Positions 2,175 through 10,995 are shown, numbered from the stretch's first letter. The stretch is DNA of 11,496 nt from a virus (IMGVR_UViG_2541047847_000003:1-11496), one strand, 5' to 3'. Notes: a model not told the origin generated them from the letters alone. Program-made: numbers and translations.

Positions 2175-2558
2175 TCAACCAATCAACTTATAGCGACCAT
2201 CCCGTGCATTGCGACGTACACGCTCAATCTTGAGGCATAGCGCCGCATCTGGCTTTTTGGGGACAGGTACGCGGCAATATTCAGAAGCTCGAGGAATATT
2301 GTTTATCCAGTCGATCACTTCACTTAAATACCAGGCCTTACGCCCTTCCGTAACCTGTACGCGTTCGGGGAACTCTCCACGAGCCTCAAGGTTTAGCAAT
2401 GTGCGACGGCTAAGGGTAGTAAGTTCCATCACCTGATTCATATCAACAAGGCGTTCACTTAAACGCATTTTGTCAGCAATAGCCTTTAATTCCTCTACTG
2501 CTGGATCCGGATACATCATTTCGGCAATTGGCTTAAGGTCATTGTAATGATTCTGCAT
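2175..2558 (-). CDS. AlpA/Vis-family HTH protein (second copy), 127 aa
   Basis: Central segment LTTLSRRTLLNLEARGEFPERVQVTEGRKAWYLSEVIDWI matches the AlpA-type HTH pattern. GGGGGA Shine-Dalgarno 4 nt upstream of the ATG; sits between the decoration gene and cos. Confidence 0.65.
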   Translation of the reverse strand: MQNHYNDLKPIAEMMYPDPAVEELKAIADKMRLSERLVDMNQVMELTTLSRRTLLNLEARGEFPERVQVTEGRKAWYLSEVIDWINNIPRASEYCRVPVPKKPDAALCLKIERVRRNARDGRYKLIG

Positions 2559-4843: not shown

Positions 4844-4895
4844 AGGCTTTATCTCACAGCAGTAAATTAAAATTTTTGCGTTTTAACCCTTCACC

Positions 4896-5116
4896 TGTTC
4901 ACCTTTTGATATTTTATCTTTTAATTCATAATGTTAAGGGGTGAACAGTTTCACAAAAACTATTCACCAACTGTTCACCACTGTTCACCCTTGAAGCTCA
5001 ATAAACAATCAAAAAGGTGAACAGTGAATAGTTTGGTGAACAGTTCATAAATAACTGTTCACCCTATAACATACTGATACAAAAGATATTTATGACAGGG
5101 TGAACAGTGGTGAACA
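4896..5116. repeat. Origin-like iteron cluster: about 10 copies of TGTTCACC/GGTGAACA in both orientations with AT-rich spacers (P4 ori/crr type)
   Basis: TGTTCACC at 4896, 4972, 4982, 5056; GGTGAACA at 4940, 5016, 5035, 5099, 5109; variants at 4961 and 5024. Immediately downstream of the alpha-like gene. Confidence 0.85.
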
Positions 5117-5130
5117 GTTATTCCATAAGT

Positions 5131-6948
5131 TTAATTTTTGCTATCGTCATTAGTGACCGATACACATGATGGCATCCAGTCTTCTGATTCCTCCGTCAGT
5201 GTCACGTTTGAACGCAAACCGTGCTTCGTTTTCCGTTTCATATACTCCCTGCCATATTCCGCCATTGCCCCCGGCATATCTTTACCGAAGCGCGTCAGTG
5301 TTACAGGTTTACCAAACCCATGTGCCCTCATATAAGCCAGATAGGCATGATAGAGATACCTGCGTGGGCTGAATGGCACAATTTCAGCATTACCCACTAA
5401 CAGGCCATCACACATTACCGACGCCATGAGATAGCCGCAGAAGTCCACCAGCGAATCCCCCTCTCGCTTTATCGCCAGTGCTTCTTCAGATTTCTGCTGC
5501 TCATATAACAGGCGTCTGGCTTCGTCCTGGTCAGCAAACCGTGTAAGCAGATGGCGAATCACTACCGCCAACTCACCTTCTATTTTTTCCGCCAGCATTG
5601 GATCGCGTTCGTTCTCCGGTACAACTTCCGAAAAATTGAATATCACCCGACGACGTGAGATCCCCCCGCTGCGGTCACTGAATGACATGGCGTTATTGTT
5701 AACCGCCAGCACTACTGCCGGAATACGCGTTGAGTAGGGGGCTTTGTGTTTCGGGTCAATTGCCACCTTGTCACCGCCTGTAATGGCCTTAATTCCTGCC
5801 CCATCACCAGCGTAGCGGGTCATATCCGGCATGATAATCAGCGAAAAGCCAACCACTAACGCGCGTTCCCTTGCATCTTCCAGCGCCTTCATGCTTGCCG
5901 ATACTGTGTTGGCCTTACCCGCCAGCATGGTGCAAATCTCCGCCATCACGCTTTTACCACTTCCCCCTGGACCTGTTACCTCAATGAATAACTGCCAGTC
6001 GTACCGGTTCGCCAGCACCATGAATAATGCAGCCAGTACGCGATCCGCCTTGCGGTCATTCTCAGCCACCGAACGGCGTAACCACTTCCAGAAATTCGGC
6101 GCATGTGTTGCCAGCGTTTCCCCCTCTGCTGGTGGGCTGAAAGGTAATTCACTGGCAATTAACAACCAGTCGTTTTTGTTATGCTCCCGAAAATTACCTG
6201 TTCTGGTATCAAATACCCCGTTACTGAATCCAATCAGGTTACGGGCTGTATTCCCCATTACAGGCAAACTTAACTTCATGGTATCGACCGCCGATTTAAT
6301 GGCGTTCTGCGAATAGCTGATCTCTGCATCAATGAAAATCTGCGCCATAGCTCGCTGTAATTCTTTATCCTGTACTGGCTCCCATACAACGCCGTTGTAA
6401 TGGTGAACAGTGTCAGAGTCAGCATGAATCGCCAGTTCACCGCCATAATGTGCCAGGAGAACTTCGCCGCGTTGACTTGCTCCCATCTGGTTAAGCGCCA
6501 GTGATGAAGCGTTATCGTCTTTTACCCGCTCTTTTTTCTTTACAGGCAGTTCAACTACCTTTTTCTTTTCCGCCAGCTCTGCCCGTTCACGTTCCAGATA
6601 TTCGCGCCAGTTCTCCCGTTTCTGGCTGTGCATTCCTTCAGGGTAATAATCAGCATCCCTGACACCTGCCGCTGCCAGTTTCTGCCCGATGGTATTAACA
6701 AGCCCCGGACGCAATAACCCCGCCTGATAGAGACGCACGCGATAGCGTCCGTCCGGTACGATTTGCAGGTTGTCCAGTTCGGCAAGTTGTTGCTCTCCAA
6801 GCCAGACAGGAGGCACGTTATCGCCAGCCAGTCGCCCGTCCTGTTCCTGCCACTGCTTCGCATGTGCCCACGCATCACTACCCGCAAAAATGATGACTTC
6901 CGTCATTTTGTCACGCGGCTGGTGTTTTAAATTTGGCGCTTTTTTCAT
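5131..6948 (-). CDS. P4 alpha-like replication protein (primase/helicase family, D5-type P-loop NTPase)
   Basis: Walker A GPGGSGKS and a Walker B-like hydrophobic stretch; adjacent TGTTCACC iterons. Start set at the ATG giving MKKAPNL (GGAGAGAG upstream); the ORF track start at 6963 is a GTG. No primase catalytic motif was identified by eye. Confidence 0.8.
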   Translation of the reverse strand: MKKAPNLKHQPRDKMTEVIIFAGSDAWAHAKQWQEQDGRLAGDNVPPVWLGEQQLAELDNLQIVPDGRYRVRLYQAGLLRPGLVNTIGQKLAAAGVRDADYYPEGMHSQKRENWREYLERERAELAEKKKVVELPVKKKERVKDDNASSLALNQMGASQRGEVLLAHYGGELAIHADSDTVHHYNGVVWEPVQDKELQRAMAQIFIDAEISYSQNAIKSAVDTMKLSLPVMGNTARNLIGFSNGVFDTRTGNFREHNKNDWLLIASELPFSPPAEGETLATHAPNFWKWLRRSVAENDRKADRVLAALFMVLANRYDWQLFIEVTGPGGSGKSVMAEICTMLAGKANTVSASMKALEDARERALVVGFSLIIMPDMTRYAGDGAGIKAITGGDKVAIDPKHKAPYSTRIPAVVLAVNNNAMSFSDRSGGISRRRVIFNFSEVVPENERDPMLAEKIEGELAVVIRHLLTRFADQDEARRLLYEQQKSEEALAIKREGDSLVDFCGYLMASVMCDGLLVGNAEIVPFSPRRYLYHAYLAYMRAHGFGKPVTLTRFGKDMPGAMAEYGREYMKRKTKHGLRSNVTLTEESEDWMPSCVSVTNDDSKN

Positions 6949-7244
6949 TTCTGCTCTCTCCACGCGGCAATCATGTTTTTCAGTTCCTGTAGTTTTTTAT
7001 CCACATCCACACGTGACACATGGTTATTTCTGGAAGTCGGGATTTCCCGCCGGAATCTGCAAATAAAGATCTCCACGTTCAGCGAACTAAGAAATGAATA
7101 GCCATCACGAATAAAATACACACGGTCAAACATCAGTTCTTTTACCGTTACTCTGTTACCGTTCTTATCCAGATAAATAGCGCCGGGGATAATTTTGGGG
7201 TGTGCATAACCGCTGGCAGTCAAGCCAGATAAATATGTTCTCAT
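6945..7244 (-). CDS. Hypothetical protein, 99 aa, translationally coupled to the alpha-like gene
   Basis: Stop overlaps the alpha start (ATGA); no recognisable motifs. Confidence 0.55.
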   Translation of the reverse strand: MRTYLSGLTASGYAHPKIIPGAIYLDKNGNRVTVKELMFDRVYFIRDGYSFLSSLNVEIFICRFRREIPTSRNNHVSRVDVDKKLQELKNMIAAWREQK

Positions 7245-7250
7245 GATTAT

Positions 7251-7571
7251 TTATCCCCGATTTGAATCAGTATTCGCTTTCTTTATGGCATTTAATGCAT
7301 CTGTGGCATTTTCAATGGTGCACCGTAACGAAATATCAAACTGCCCAAGCATTGCCAGTAACAAACCGATATTACCCATATCAATGCGCATAGCCTTTTC
7401 GTCATAGTCCTCATTTTCTGACGCATGCCACATCAGACTACCAATTGACGCAACAGCCATTGATATATTGTCAGTAGCCCCATCCGCAGCGGAATAAACC
7501 TTTTTAGCAATATCATGCTCACAGTTAAAATGCGGATTAATCAGGTACTGGTAATTTGACATATCAGGCAT
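7251..7571 (-). CDS. Hypothetical protein, 106 aa
   Basis: ORF in the same operon; its start overlaps the stop of the upstream 67-aa ORF (ATGCCTGA). Confidence 0.55.
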   Translation of the reverse strand: MPDMSNYQYLINPHFNCEHDIAKKVYSAADGATDNISMAVASIGSLMWHASENEDYDEKAMRIDMGNIGLLLAMLGQFDISLRCTIENATDALNAIKKANTDSNRG

Positions 7572-7767
7572 GGCACACCCCCTGACGAATACGGGCGGCG
7601 AATACCATCACGCAGCCAGCCGGGGATTGCTGGCGTGCTTCCTGTTCGCTGGTGGCCACGATGTGAATCACGCGCGGTTGTGCGGTGCTCAGGGCGATAA
7701 AACGCCAGATGTATTTATTCAGGTCGTGCGAGTCCCGCCCTTGCGGGTGTGTGGTATGATTTCTCAT
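7564..7767 (-). CDS. Hypothetical small protein, 67 aa, first gene of the replication operon
   Basis: Internal ATG of the 320-aa track ORF, preceded by GAGG; the sequence upstream in that frame looks non-coding. Stop is coupled to the next gene. Confidence 0.45.
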   Translation of the reverse strand: MRNHTTHPQGRDSHDLNKYIWRFIALSTAQPRVIHIVATSEQEARQQSPAGCVMVFAARIRQGVCHA

Positions 7768-7863
7768 AGCTACCTCGATACGCTTTCTATCGTTGGTGGT
7801 TAGAAGCCCGGTTAGTGTTAGCGCACTGCCGGGTTTCGTCGTTTCTGCACCTTGCATCAACAA

Positions 7864-7917
7864 GGTGTTGAACACCAATTTAAGCCTAGGTGTTAAACAC
7901 GTCAAGTGTTGAACACT
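7864..7917. promoter_or_regulatory. Three operator-like inverted repeats (GGTGTTGAACACC, GGTGTTAAACAC, AGTGTTGAACACT) in a divergent promoter region
   Basis: Repeats at 7864..7876, 7889..7900 and 7905..7917. The third overlaps a candidate -35 (TTGAAC) placed 17 bp from CATACT for the plus-strand gene. Confidence 0.6.
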
Positions 7918-7966
7918 TATTTTTTTTCCTGCATACTGCATTTGTTTTTTGTAAGGGGTACACAAC

Positions 7967-8146
7967 ATGGCGACAAAAGCAGTAAACGCAAAATCACAAA
8001 CAGTTGCGGCAAGGGTTCCGCATGAAGTTATGAACAATGTTGAGGCGGTAAAAATGCCTGGTGAAAGTACAGGGCAGTTTGTAACAGCAGCATTAAAGCG
8101 AGAAGTTGAATACCGCCAGCGTCGCAAGGCCAAAGAGCAGGAGTAA
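7967..8146 (+). CDS. Small ribbon-helix-helix-like protein, 59 aa; candidate repressor
   Basis: Below the ORF-track length cutoff. AGGGG Shine-Dalgarno 8 nt upstream. Pattern QTVAARVPHEVMNNVEAV...GESTGQFVTAALKRE fits a beta-strand/helix/helix RHH layout. Confidence 0.5.
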   Translation: MATKAVNAKSQTVAARVPHEVMNNVEAVKMPGESTGQFVTAALKREVEYRQRRKAKEQE

Positions 8147-8203
8147 CCATCACCAGCGCCGTGGTGCGGTGAACTGTGGCGCACAGGGTTACAGGTATCT
8201 ACG

Positions 8204-8383
8204 ATGACTGACAAATCATTAAAGAAATTATCCTCATCCAAGAAAAAACAACGCAAAAATGCGGTAAACGAACATGAACCGGAGAGATTCGCACCATGTG
8301 CGTTTGTCCTTGAGAAGTACCTTAAAGAGTATTCTAGGAAAATACGCTCATTGCAGGCATGGCAGCGAATCGAGCCAGACTGA
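8204..8383 (+). CDS. Hypothetical small basic protein, 59 aa
   Basis: ORF found by hand downstream of the RHH-like gene and before the plus-strand terminator; weak Shine-Dalgarno. Confidence 0.3.
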   Translation: MTDKSLKKLSSSKKKQRKNAVNEHEPERFAPCAFVLEKYLKEYSRKIRSLQAWQRIEPD

Positions 8384-8447
8384 TAGCATTGCCCACCAGC
8401 CAACAACCTGGTATTCTGGATATGCTCAAGTTTAGTGTTATGCCACT

Positions 8448-8477
8448 GGCGACCGCCCTTGGTCGCCTTTGTTTTAT
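8448..8477 (+). terminator. Rho-independent terminator (plus strand)
   Basis: GGCGACC, loop GCCCTT, GGTCGCC, followed by TTTGTTTTAT. Confidence 0.6.
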
Positions 8478-8494
8478 GTGTCATAGCTCCCCCC

Positions 8495-8719
8495 CTACGC
8501 TGCCTTACCTGAATTAACGCGGTCACGGCTTTGCACCCAGTCCATAACTTCGGAAAGCAACCAGCCTACAGAACGCCCCCCAAGATTACGGCGAGACGGA
8601 AAGCCCCCTTTCTTCTCCAGTTCGTAGCGTGTAGTACGGCTGACGCCTGTTAACTTACGACATTCATCTTCACGAATTACGCGATCTGTTAGTGATTGAA
8701 ATTGTGTATTTTGATTCAT
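8495..8719 (-). CDS. alpA: AlpA-family transcriptional regulator / excisionase-like HTH protein
   Basis: 74 aa; RKLTGVSRTTRYELEKKGGFPSRRNLGGRSVGWLLSEVMDWV matches the AlpA/Vis-type HTH pattern; GAGGG Shine-Dalgarno. Confidence 0.8.
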   Translation of the reverse strand: MNQNTQFQSLTDRVIREDECRKLTGVSRTTRYELEKKGGFPSRRNLGGRSVGWLLSEVMDWVQSRDRVNSGKAA

Positions 8720-8822
8720 AAAAACACCCTCGAACGTAACCGAACAAGGGCATCTTATTTACCATAGCAGTTGGTGCAATATTGGAAAAATAAACTTTAT
8801 TCTAATTTATCGTTCTCCATGA

Positions 8823-9677
8823 TTAATTTTCATTAGATAACATTTTTCTTATTTTTTCTAAAGAATCGCTGCGCATTATTTTTTCTAAGAAGGGTTTTAC
8901 AGTCTGAGCAATAGCAAAGGTGTCCTTTTCACCATCAGGATACAAAGATACGGCAAGCACCCCTAATGAAATTTTTCTATCTGTAGACAACTCCCAAGAT
9001 AATAAGTCAATTAATGGGATTATCTTATAATCAATAATTTTACGTCGTATGCTCTCCCAACTTCCTGCAATTGGTTTGTCTGGCTCAACAATTGAAAGTT
9101 CACTACGCCATTTTGGTAATAGTTTTGTAAACGCTTCAATCAACTCATCATCTCTGTTATGTAGTAAGTCAACAGAAACAAGCATATTATCTAATGTATC
9201 AGAAAGGAGATTCACTGGTTCACGCATCACAGCCCAAAACATCCCATTATCTTCTGATATTAAACTTCCAACCATCTCATTATCTATGATGATTGGTTTA
9301 TCCTTCCAATATCCTCTTTCCGCAGTCAGTTTATTAATCATTGATATATCAAACCTTGTTACAGGTTTAATTCCATCATCATAACTTAGCTCAATTAACT
9401 TCGGCTGCACTTTATGGTCATATTCTTTTTGTTTATCACAAAACCAATCGTCTTCTTTCAGCTCTCCAAATGGATCCCCATAATTATTATGCAACGGGTA
9501 TTCAGCACCAAACATAAAACCATATTCAGGCATCTCAGAATGTTTCATTGTTAAATCATCTTGTCGCCAATATAATTGGCGAAATAGATCTTTATCCGAC
9601 AAGTTTTCTAGGCAATCATATTTGCCTAAATCAAATGACTTTGGTAAATCTTTTTTACTATTTACTTTTTTCGTCAT
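8823..9677 (-). CDS. Hypothetical 284-aa protein, AT-rich cargo gene immediately downstream of int
   Basis: Long ORF whose start overlaps the int stop by 4 bp. Visibly more AT-rich than the neighbouring genes (not computed). No motif I recognise. Confidence 0.7.
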   Translation of the reverse strand: MTKKVNSKKDLPKSFDLGKYDCLENLSDKDLFRQLYWRQDDLTMKHSEMPEYGFMFGAEYPLHNNYGDPFGELKEDDWFCDKQKEYDHKVQPKLIELSYDDGIKPVTRFDISMINKLTAERGYWKDKPIIIDNEMVGSLISEDNGMFWAVMREPVNLLSDTLDNMLVSVDLLHNRDDELIEAFTKLLPKWRSELSIVEPDKPIAGSWESIRRKIIDYKIIPLIDLLSWELSTDRKISLGVLAVSLYPDGEKDTFAIAQTVKPFLEKIMRSDSLEKIRKMLSNEN

Positions 9678-10894
9678 TGTATCCCTCTCAATATCACAAT
9701 ATTTTCATTATATCCTGCAATCATATCAAGACGCTCAACCCATAGATGCAGTGCGTCCCGTTTCGCCTGCAAATAGCGTGAATGGTTATAGGTTTTTTGC
9801 TGACCTGGCATCTGATGCGCTGTGATGTGCTCCACGATATGCGGATCGACACCTAAATCATTCAGCATAGTTGTAAACGTGTGTCGGAAATCATGCAGCG
9901 TCCAGTGTTCCTGCTTAAGCCGCTTATGCGCATTTCGTCCATATTGCGCCACCGTGGTATCTTTTTTCAGTTCGCCGAGTAATAACCCAGTGTGTGCGTT
10001 TTGCTCCACCAGCTTCTGAATGAACGGCAAAATACCATCAGGAATAGGTCGGAATATTGTTACCTTCGTTTTGCTGTGCTCTTTTGGCACTGTCCACAAC
10101 ATTTCTTTCAGATCCCATTCTTTGATCTCTGAAAGTCTGATCTCTGCCGTTCTGCACCCGAACACAATTAACAAGCGCATTAACGCACTGTAATAGGGAG
10201 CGAACACATCACCATCAATAGCGCGTAGAATTTCTTTTAGTTCGCTGTTGCTGTGCACTCTCTCGCGGATTTCTGCTCTCTTACCCACATCAGTAACGAT
10301 CAAATCGTCCAGGGCGTTGCTAAACGCGTAGCGCCGCCTGCGGCAAAACTTTAGCGCCTGTTTGCATGTCTGCATGACATGGCCCGCTGCTACTGGTGCT
10401 TTTTTTCGTACGCGGTCAAAACATGCGATCCACTGCCTTGTATCACACTTATCAAGGGGAATTGCCCCGATATGGCAAATGATGTGCTTATCCATACGCT
10501 GCACCAGCTTTATGTAATCTTTGCGGTTATCCTTCGCGTATTCCTCCAGCCAGTAGTTAATCGCTTCCTTCACCGTAACGGGTTTTAGTGCTTCCTGTAC
10601 TGTGGCGCACAACTCATACCGAGGGTTTTTACCCTCAGCCAGCCATGCCCGGCACTGTGTTCGCTTTTCCCTTGCAGATTTCAGCGACAATTCCGGGTAA
10701 GCCCCCAGCTTTAACCGCTCTGCGGCAACCTCACGGCCTCCCGTTCGGTACCGGAAATACCAGGTTAATTTACCTCCCTTTGAGTGTTTAATCTCCAGCC
10801 CGCCCCCGTCGGAGTAAAAACGTTCTTTTTCTGCCTGGACAGCCACCAATTTTTTTAACGTTGAATCGCTCAGTTTGTTTAGTGCTTTTCCCAC
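9674..10894 (-). CDS. int: Tyrosine recombinase, P4-type integrase family
   Basis: 406 aa. N-terminal arm-binding-type region (GGKLTWYFRYRTGGREV...LGAYPELSLKSAREK); C-terminal catalytic motifs HDFRHTF and YNHSRY; GTG start. Confidence 0.9.
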   Translation of the reverse strand: MGKALNKLSDSTLKKLVAVQAEKERFYSDGGGLEIKHSKGGKLTWYFRYRTGGREVAAERLKLGAYPELSLKSAREKRTQCRAWLAEGKNPRYELCATVQEALKPVTVKEAINYWLEEYAKDNRKDYIKLVQRMDKHIICHIGAIPLDKCDTRQWIACFDRVRKKAPVAAGHVMQTCKQALKFCRRRRYAFSNALDDLIVTDVGKRAEIRERVHSNSELKEILRAIDGDVFAPYYSALMRLLIVFGCRTAEIRLSEIKEWDLKEMLWTVPKEHSKTKVTIFRPIPDGILPFIQKLVEQNAHTGLLLGELKKDTTVAQYGRNAHKRLKQEHWTLHDFRHTFTTMLNDLGVDPHIVEHITAHQMPGQQKTYNHSRYLQAKRDALHLWVERLDMIAGYNENIVILRGIQ

Positions 10895-10928: not shown

Positions 10929-10995
10929 AAACTGACCACACAACTGACCACACATTTCGCTGAAACTCGGCAAACAACAACGAACAGCAACAAAC
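10929..10995. repeat. int-proximal arm block: tandem AACTGACCACAC x2 plus CAACAACGAACA-type repeats; homologous to 161..235
   Basis: AACTGACCACAC at 10929..10940 and 10941..10952, about 30 bp upstream of the int start. Confidence 0.6.

Follow-up and report, generated by a model that had tools for sequence, protein, structure and literature searches.

An exchangeable DUF6387-family gene between int and alpA in satellite-like islands of Gram-negative bacteria, with a possible role in phage interference

The stretch of viral DNA analysed here (IMGVR_UViG_2541047847_000003:1-11496, 11,496 nt, referred to below as the window) contains an integrative island of ~10.8 kb inserted between thiM and rcnR and adjoining rcnR. 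The subject of this work is one gene of that island, located at 8823-9677 on the minus strand between int and alpA, which encodes a 284-aa protein of the DUF6387 family (33 kDa, isoelectric point 4.97). The upstream gene of the same transcription unit, int (9674-10894, minus strand), encodes a P4-type tyrosine integrase with Arm-DNA-bind_3, Phage_int_M and Phage_integrase domains. The downstream neighbor, alpA (8495-8719, minus strand), encodes a 74-aa protein that matched Phage_AlpA (E = 4.8e-16). All positions are those of the whole window, and homologous loci carry L-numbers (L002-L039).

The ATG start codon of the DUF6387 gene (9677-9675) overlaps the TGA stop codon of int (9676-9674) in a shared ATGA (9674-9677, minus strand), and a GAGGG Shine-Dalgarno motif (9683-9687, minus strand), read from the sequence, lies within the 3' end of int. 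The identical 4-nt overlap was found in L002, L004-L006, L010-L013, L018, L023, L024, L028, L031 and L033, among which the gene behind int varies, and every type of gene occupying this slot retained it. The ratio of nonsynonymous to synonymous substitution (dN/dS) between pairs of DUF6387 homologues was 0.06-0.20, which indicates purifying selection, and the open reading frame (ORF) is therefore a working protein-coding gene. A first-pass annotation made from the sequence alone had placed a 284-aa reading frame between int and alpA and had described it as translationally coupled to int; the frame, its placement and the coupling were all confirmed by these observations.

The first-pass annotation had also called the protein an orphan without assignable motifs, possibly from an undescribed family, and this description was not sustained. 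A full-length match to Pfam PF19924 (DUF6387) was obtained at 108.8 bits (E = 4.6e-31, residues 3-272, model positions 2-252 of 258), the gathering cut-off of that model being 28.9 bits. RefSeq gives the product name 'DUF6387 family protein' to the identical E. coli protein, which is annotated in many E. coli genomes, and the int-DUF6387-alpA block was present at a coverage of at least 80% in 50 of 5,426 complete genomes. Among 1.84 billion representatives of 50%-identity clusters, 1,261 members were found at E ≤ 1e-3 and 419 at E ≤ 1e-10, and a profile search of a 5.8-billion-protein set with a wide DUF6387 alignment added almost no further members. Homologues formed 57 clusters at 90% identity and came from Enterobacterales, Pasteurellaceae, Acinetobacter, Neptunomonas and marine metagenomes. 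The only PHROGs counterpart was phrog_23422, an 'unknown function' family; NCBIfam gave no match to the window protein, and a literature search on DUF6387 and related names found no functional data. Because the protein belongs to a known, uncharacterised family and occupies a recognised accessory position, it was not filed as a member of an undescribed one.

The neighborhood of the gene was surveyed in 24 distinct contexts, with unannotated alpA genes confirmed by an AlpA hidden Markov model. An alpA-like gene lay directly downstream of DUF6387 in 23 of them, the sole exception being Neptunomonas L007, where no AlpA-like ORF was detected. Eighteen of the 24 contexts had int, one or two DUF6387 genes and alpA on a single strand. 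Five others (Haemophilus, Avibacterium, two islands of the EARL, or ROD21-like, type carried by large plasmids and one short marine contig) had DUF6387 directly upstream of alpA, and no int was confirmed directly upstream on the same strand. Tandem, diverged DUF6387 paralogues occurred between int and alpA at three loci (L003 8001-9681, L026 1619-3330 and L039 2015-4131), namely Providencia and two metagenomic or marine islands, the two Providencia copies being 50% and 32% identical to the window protein. In two locus pairs the synonymous divergence of DUF6387 was similar to that of alpA and distinct from that of int, which suggests that DUF6387 and alpA move as a pair. Published work had noticed this pairing without explaining it: in most ROD21-like islands an uncharacterised 843 bp gene goes with the one for the recombination directionality factor (RDF) (PMC6035254), a DUF6387 protein lies beside an AlpA-family gene at the distal end of ICEKp258.2 (PMC10763509, Table 1), and the same DUF6387/AlpA pair is found in a Serratia island (PMC9964261).

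Homology between the window and its sister island L010 breaks at 8749/8750 and returns at 9692/9693. These borders define the exchangeable cassette (8750-9692, minus strand) as the last ~16-19 nt of int, covering its final codons, together with the slot gene and a cassette-specific spacer of ~70 nt. In islands at the rcnR site whose int genes were 91-95% identical, the slot held the 284-aa allele of the window, a 331-aa DUF6387 allele or an unrelated protein of 239-257 aa. The 331-aa allele was 33% identical to the window protein while its int was 95% and its alpA 85% identical. In a related island at the cspD site the slot was empty, with a spacer of 418 nt between int and alpA, and a 257-aa alternative protein (WP_000775337.1) was found in identical form behind a different integrase at cspD in O157:H7. 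Over 14 loci the identity of DUF6387 loosely tracked that of int and alpA (r = 0.46-0.52), and int correlated with alpA at 0.72. Exchange or loss of the slot gene beside an int that is 91-95% identical means that the gene is dispensable for the core cycle of the island, and the proposal of the first-pass annotation that the int-alpA interval is an accessory slot stood. In a related element family an accessory region likewise lies between int and the regulatory module (bioRxiv 10.64898/2026.01.12.698999).

The unrelated occupants form a family of 239-262 aa with the N-terminus MKLPERLYYPLPEAAEKLGC (L010 1912-2685, L011 1889-2608, L031 5388-6161). In this family, as in DUF6387, the N-terminal ~40 residues and the C-terminus are conserved, and the part between them is hypervariable. 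It gave no match in Pfam, PHROG, PADLOC or PDB, and hhalign found no relationship among DUF6387, the alternative family and AlpA. In K-12, YfjH of CP4-57 is located between intA and alpA; it was considered as an equivalent of the slot gene and dropped because it is on the opposite strand.

Between the DUF6387 stop codon and alpA, spacer comparison separated a cassette-specific, AT-rich part (8752-8822, minus strand) from a conserved GC-rich hairpin with a T-run that ends at the alpA ATG (8720-8751, minus strand). A promoter scan of the DUF6387-alpA spacer gave no consensus sigma-70 promoter; a manual TTGCAC/TAAGAT candidate was weak, was not kept in related spacers and was rejected. The 3' arm of the hairpin holds the GAGG ribosome-binding site of alpA. 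The hairpin folded at -16 to -20 kcal/mol in eight loci, and 97.5% of the alignment cells were paired, with compensatory change in four pairs, as compared to 37-65% paired in slid controls. It was present in the window, L002, L004-L006, L010, L012, L013, L018, L023, L024 and L033, and absent from EARL-type loci, marine loci and the empty-slot island. From these folds the hairpin is a candidate terminator of the unit formed by int and the slot gene or a candidate attenuator of alpA; as a terminator-like element it would insulate the int-DUF6387 unit from alpA, and it is possibly the point where helper-induced read-through acts. AlpA of Pseudomonas aeruginosa has been described as a transcription antiterminator, an activity for which the hairpin would offer a natural point of control.

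In the alternative cassette, the spacer before alpA carries the inverted repeat TATCACGTGCTGGTAGTGTGATATCAC (L010 1821-1911, L011 1797-1888, L031 5297-5387). Its half-sites resemble those of the lambda cI operator (TATCAC / GTGATA), and the repeat could be a binding site for the helix-turn-helix (HTH)-like protein of that cassette or for a helper-phage repressor.

Within DUF6387, residues 1-40 and about 165-284 were conserved and residues 41-160 were hypervariable with many indels. Column entropy was 1.7 bits for residues 1-20, 2.7 for 21-40, 3.2-3.5 for 41-160 and 1.9-2.6 for ~161-260. The residues conserved throughout the family were F15, Y20, R38, L187, R191, Y217, D224, L225, P247 and T259, and none of these is a His, Cys, Glu or Lys of the kind common in catalytic sites. 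The maximum hydropathy over 19 residues was 0.91, giving no membrane segment, and ten longer members of the family contained no added Pfam domain. Structure prediction and a PADLOC search, both proposed in the first-pass annotation, were carried out. The AlphaFold2 model was mostly helical with a mean predicted local distance difference test (pLDDT) score of 80.5 and its highest confidence at residues 10-60 and 200-280. The C-terminal 122 residues modelled alone collapsed to a pLDDT of 47.9, which was read as a need for the N-terminal part, and this model was left out of the fold search. In the models, then, the conserved ends appear to form one folding unit that carries the variable insert. 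No fold relative was found, a sequence-profile search of PDB chains returned nothing at E ≤ 10, and no similarity to known anti-restriction or anti-defence proteins was detected in Pfam, PDB or BFVD. The protein is thus predicted to be soluble and acidic, with no enzymatic signature in its sequence.

The visibly different composition of the gene had been taken in the first-pass annotation as a sign of recent acquisition. The AT-richness itself was verified: the GC content of the DUF6387 gene was 0.337 and that at third codon positions (GC3) 0.270, versus 0.479 and 0.514 for int and 0.484 and 0.413 for alpA, with a GC content of 0.46 for the window. The DUF6387 gene was, however, 7-20 GC points under the adjacent int in Enterobacter, Providencia, two Yersinia species, Tenebrionibacter and another E. 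coli allele as well, and the GC3 deficit relative to the adjacent int was 16-36 points in these homologues, Providencia and Enterobacter soli excepted. The proteins of these AT-rich satellite-type homologues were 33-70% identical to that of the window. The copies in Pasteurellaceae and Neptunomonas were 8-14 points under the GC content of their loci, and the unrelated replacement gene of the sister islands was just as AT-rich (0.32-0.34). Because the deficit is common to satellite-type homologues diverged to 33-70% identity in other hosts, it is no mark of recent acquisition; AT-richness is a stable trait of the satellite branch and not of the whole DUF6387 family. That the gene is recently acquired, functionless or orphan foreign DNA, a reading to which only the contrast of 0.337 with 0.46 would point, is very improbable in view of the large family, the purifying selection, the identical position and GC deficit in distant genera and the annotation of the identical protein in many E. 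coli genomes. Recent orphan cargo was accordingly rejected, the match to PF19924 also speaking against it.

The reading that we favor, with a probability of roughly 35%, is a non-enzymatic role in binding phage components or interfering with phages. The DUF6387 protein would be made together with Int from the resting island, and its conserved N-terminal ~40 and C-terminal ~120 residues would act as one scaffold displaying a hypervariable insert of ~120 residues. The insert would bind a partner that varies, a phage protein being the most plausible candidate. In island-bearing cells this binding would stop or hinder phage reproduction, by stoichiometric inhibition and without any enzymatic or membrane effector. 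We infer three things here: that the variable region serves for recognition, that it is a phage protein it recognises, and that protection or interference follows. The protein fits the profile of one that recognises a variable partner, since it is non-enzymatic and dispensable, has a fast-diversifying region, is shuffled among islands and is sometimes found in tandem. Coupling to int and the putative insulation from the inducible alpA unit fit a protein that is present before infection. Support also comes from the published immune use of the 5' region of phage-inducible chromosomal islands (PICIs), from the empty and alternative slots, from the shared build of the unrelated replacement family and from the tandem copies, and the AT-richness kept across hosts and the purifying selection count in its favor.

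Several results weigh against phage interference. DUF6387 kept to the position just upstream of alpA (23 of 24 contexts), and defence genes normally travel more widely. By tblastn, DUF6387 was nearly absent from phage and plasmid records: it was found in 2 of 50,697 phage records (a 1.8-kb fragment and a chromosomal contig) and in 4 of 72,556 plasmid records, one of which was a 17-kb circular int-DUF6387-alpA element with capsid and terminase genes and two of which were EARL-type insertions. DUF6387 thus behaves unlike a free-moving defence gene and is tied to alpA. In conjugative EARL islands the gene stands beside the RDF gene in most members and is not patchy cargo (PMC6035254, PMC10763509), and its GC content there (0.44-0.45) is not lower than that of its surroundings (0.43). 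No PADLOC-DB v2.0.0 family matched the window protein or three other DUF6387 members at E ≤ 1, and no recognisable effector (nuclease, NADase, protease, kinase or membrane-disrupting segment) was found from Pfam, conserved residues, hydropathy or folds.

The tie to alpA supports a second reading, a regulatory role, in which DUF6387 would be a sensor in the island life cycle that acts on the AlpA switch. The scaffold would act on AlpA, Int or the alpA leader and the insert would bind an inducing protein of a helper phage or helper plasmid, so that AlpA-dependent induction or excision stays off until the right helper arrives, in functional analogy to the Stl repressors of Gram-positive PICIs. 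According to PMC6092414, Gram-negative PICIs have neither a known master repressor nor an identified inducer. Such a sensor is consistent with the alpA-like gene directly downstream in satellites and conjugative EARL islands alike, with the 843 bp gene beside the RDF gene, with the similar synonymous divergence of DUF6387 and alpA in two locus pairs and with the restriction of DUF6387 to integrative islands. The ~70-nt spacer that reaches to the alpA hairpin travels with the cassette, as expected of a regulator and its target site, and a conserved core with a variable insert fits a constant partner with a variable ligand; the replacement family, moreover, has an HTH-like N-terminus and an operator-like inverted repeat in its spacer. 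Against a regulator of this kind stand the acidity of the protein, the tandem paralogues, which would be unusual for a master regulator, and the location on the same strand as alpA with a terminator-like hairpin in between. The same alpA type (85-86% identity) also occurred beside a 33%-identical allele or an unrelated protein and, in a related island, beside an empty slot, and DUF6387 is therefore not an obligatory partner of AlpA. We ranked interference slightly over regulation of AlpA because the gene is lost or replaced while int and alpA remain nearly unchanged. The two are not mutually exclusive: anti-phage activity is possible, and an AlpA-linked regulatory role is about as likely. As a more speculative extension, which we regard as rather unlikely, DUF6387 and the replacement family of the same build would together supply the helper-sensing switch that Gram-negative PICI-like satellites and EARL islands have seemed to lack, the scaffold restraining the AlpA/Int module and the insert binding a helper-phage or helper-plasmid protein. 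If so, cassette exchange would re-target an island to a new helper, and the same binding could inhibit the phage, making sensing and immunity one act.

Two further roles were weighed and found improbable. As an establishment or counter-defence factor, the protein would be translated alongside Int as the island enters a new cell, where it would shield the arriving DNA or, by binding, disarm a defence of the host or of a resident element. Translational coupling to int suits a gene needed at entry, the protein is acidic and appears non-enzymatic, a hypervariable region with allele shuffling is typical of arms-race proteins, and the circular form of EARL islands puts the gene next to attP and int (gene order, PMC10763509 Table 1). 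Its net charge is only moderately negative, though, and thus unlike that of a DNA mimic, the searches for anti-restriction and anti-defence relatives were negative, and only in the enterobacterial satellite branch is the gene coupled to int. Slightly less probable again is an accessory factor of site-specific recombination, which would act at the att sites beside Int and the directionality factor of AlpA type. The position between int and an RDF-type gene, the ATGA coupling and the conservation at the att-proximal end of EARL islands (PMC6035254, PMC10763509) would agree with it; sister islands with the same int and att site that lack the gene or carry an unrelated protein do not, and 33% identity beside a 95% identical int is hard to reconcile with a conserved partner.

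Known systems resemble the gene in part. The DUF6387 genes of EARL islands, such as KPNJ2_RS09320 of ICEKp258.2, have N- and C-terminal conserved motifs in common with the window protein and likewise lie directly upstream of an AlpA-family gene; the window gene differs in belonging to a satellite-like island, in its place downstream of and coupled to int, which in EARL islands is at the other end, and in its AT-richness. Immune systems of PICIs are located at the 5' or 3' end of the island, as summarised in PMC11364771 from Fillol-Salom et al. 2022. Like the 5' accessory immune genes, the window gene comes just after int and before a regulatory gene, in a position whose content differs between similar islands. 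It is also a single gene of an uncharacterised family that, like the Tai proteins, has no PADLOC match. The Tai proteins, PICI-borne defences that have no DefenseFinder or PADLOC match and block tail assembly (PMC11364771), are encoded downstream of pri, whereas DUF6387 is upstream of alpA. Unlike PICI immune genes, which occur in several kinds of element, DUF6387 is confined to one position by alpA, and it is known from sequence alone. The Stl repressors of Staphylococcus aureus pathogenicity islands are, like DUF6387, highly divergent between islands that share other modules and present in the resting island, and a sensing DUF6387 would similarly couple a variable phage ligand to island induction. 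No HTH was detected in DUF6387, which differs from Stl in being acidic and on the same strand as the gene it would regulate, in being unrelated in sequence and fold and in being dispensable in sister islands; islands without the gene argue against a universal requirement for quiescence. The defence hotspot of P4-like satellites (Rousset et al. 2022, as cited in PMC11364771) shares with the int-alpA slot a fixed position flanked by core genes and alternating unrelated genes. The int-alpA slot held one of only two uncharacterised families or was empty, and DUF6387 did not turn up elsewhere. P4 hotspots, on the other hand, hold many families that are also found in other places.

What seems to be new is that the family is tied to the position upstream of alpA across island types and has no fold relatives, that the cassette has sharp borders, and that an unrelated family built in the same way alternates with DUF6387 there. 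Accessory slots of Gram-negative islands are actively mined for new immune systems, and DUF6387 is locked beside the AlpA switch in phage satellites and in conjugatively mobilised EARL islands (for example ROD21, and ICEKp258.2 of K. pneumoniae ST258), two very different kinds of island. The gene could prove to encode a new anti-phage protein without an effector or the determinant of helper specificity in these islands; in both cases a conserved gene that several island papers have singled out as unexplained would gain a function. With the cassette borders known, swaps become straightforward.

The remainder of the island was annotated as follows. Direct repeats of 66 nt at 161-226 and 10930-10995, 86% identical, with a 28-nt exact core AACTGACCACACAACTGACCACACATTT and 10,769 nt apart, are likely its attL and attR. 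All island genes are on the minus strand. The order of transcription begins with int, DUF6387, alpA, small genes including a DUF4222 gene, a D5/P4-type primase (5131-6963, minus strand) and a single-stranded DNA-binding protein, and ends with a lambda-E-type major capsid protein, a head-decoration protein, a second AlpA-like protein and a Nu1-like small terminase. Judged by this predicted gene layout, the island is a Gram-negative PICI or satellite. Close relatives occupy the thiM-rcnR site in other E. coli strains, and their packaging modules differ.

Directly 3' of the primase gene, an AT-rich stretch (4892-5123) contains ~11 copies of GGTGAACAGT in both orientations, likely the iterons of the island replication origin. 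The second AlpA-family protein is longer (127 aa; 2175-2558, minus strand) and is encoded between the head-decoration and small terminase genes; the start region of its gene (AGGGGGATACAATG) is similar to that of the DUF6387 gene (AGAGGGATACAATG). A 320-aa ORF at 7564-8526 (minus strand) is probably spurious, and in the sister-island counterpart of this region RefSeq annotates a short Icd-like gene (minus strand) and a YlcI/YnfO-family gene (plus strand; window 7967-8146). CP018459.1 (L033) from Klebsiella pneumoniae, deposited as a 16,971-bp circular 'plasmid', carries int-DUF6387-alpA with terminase, capsid, head-tail adaptor and tape-measure genes and is probably an excised satellite assembled as a circle.
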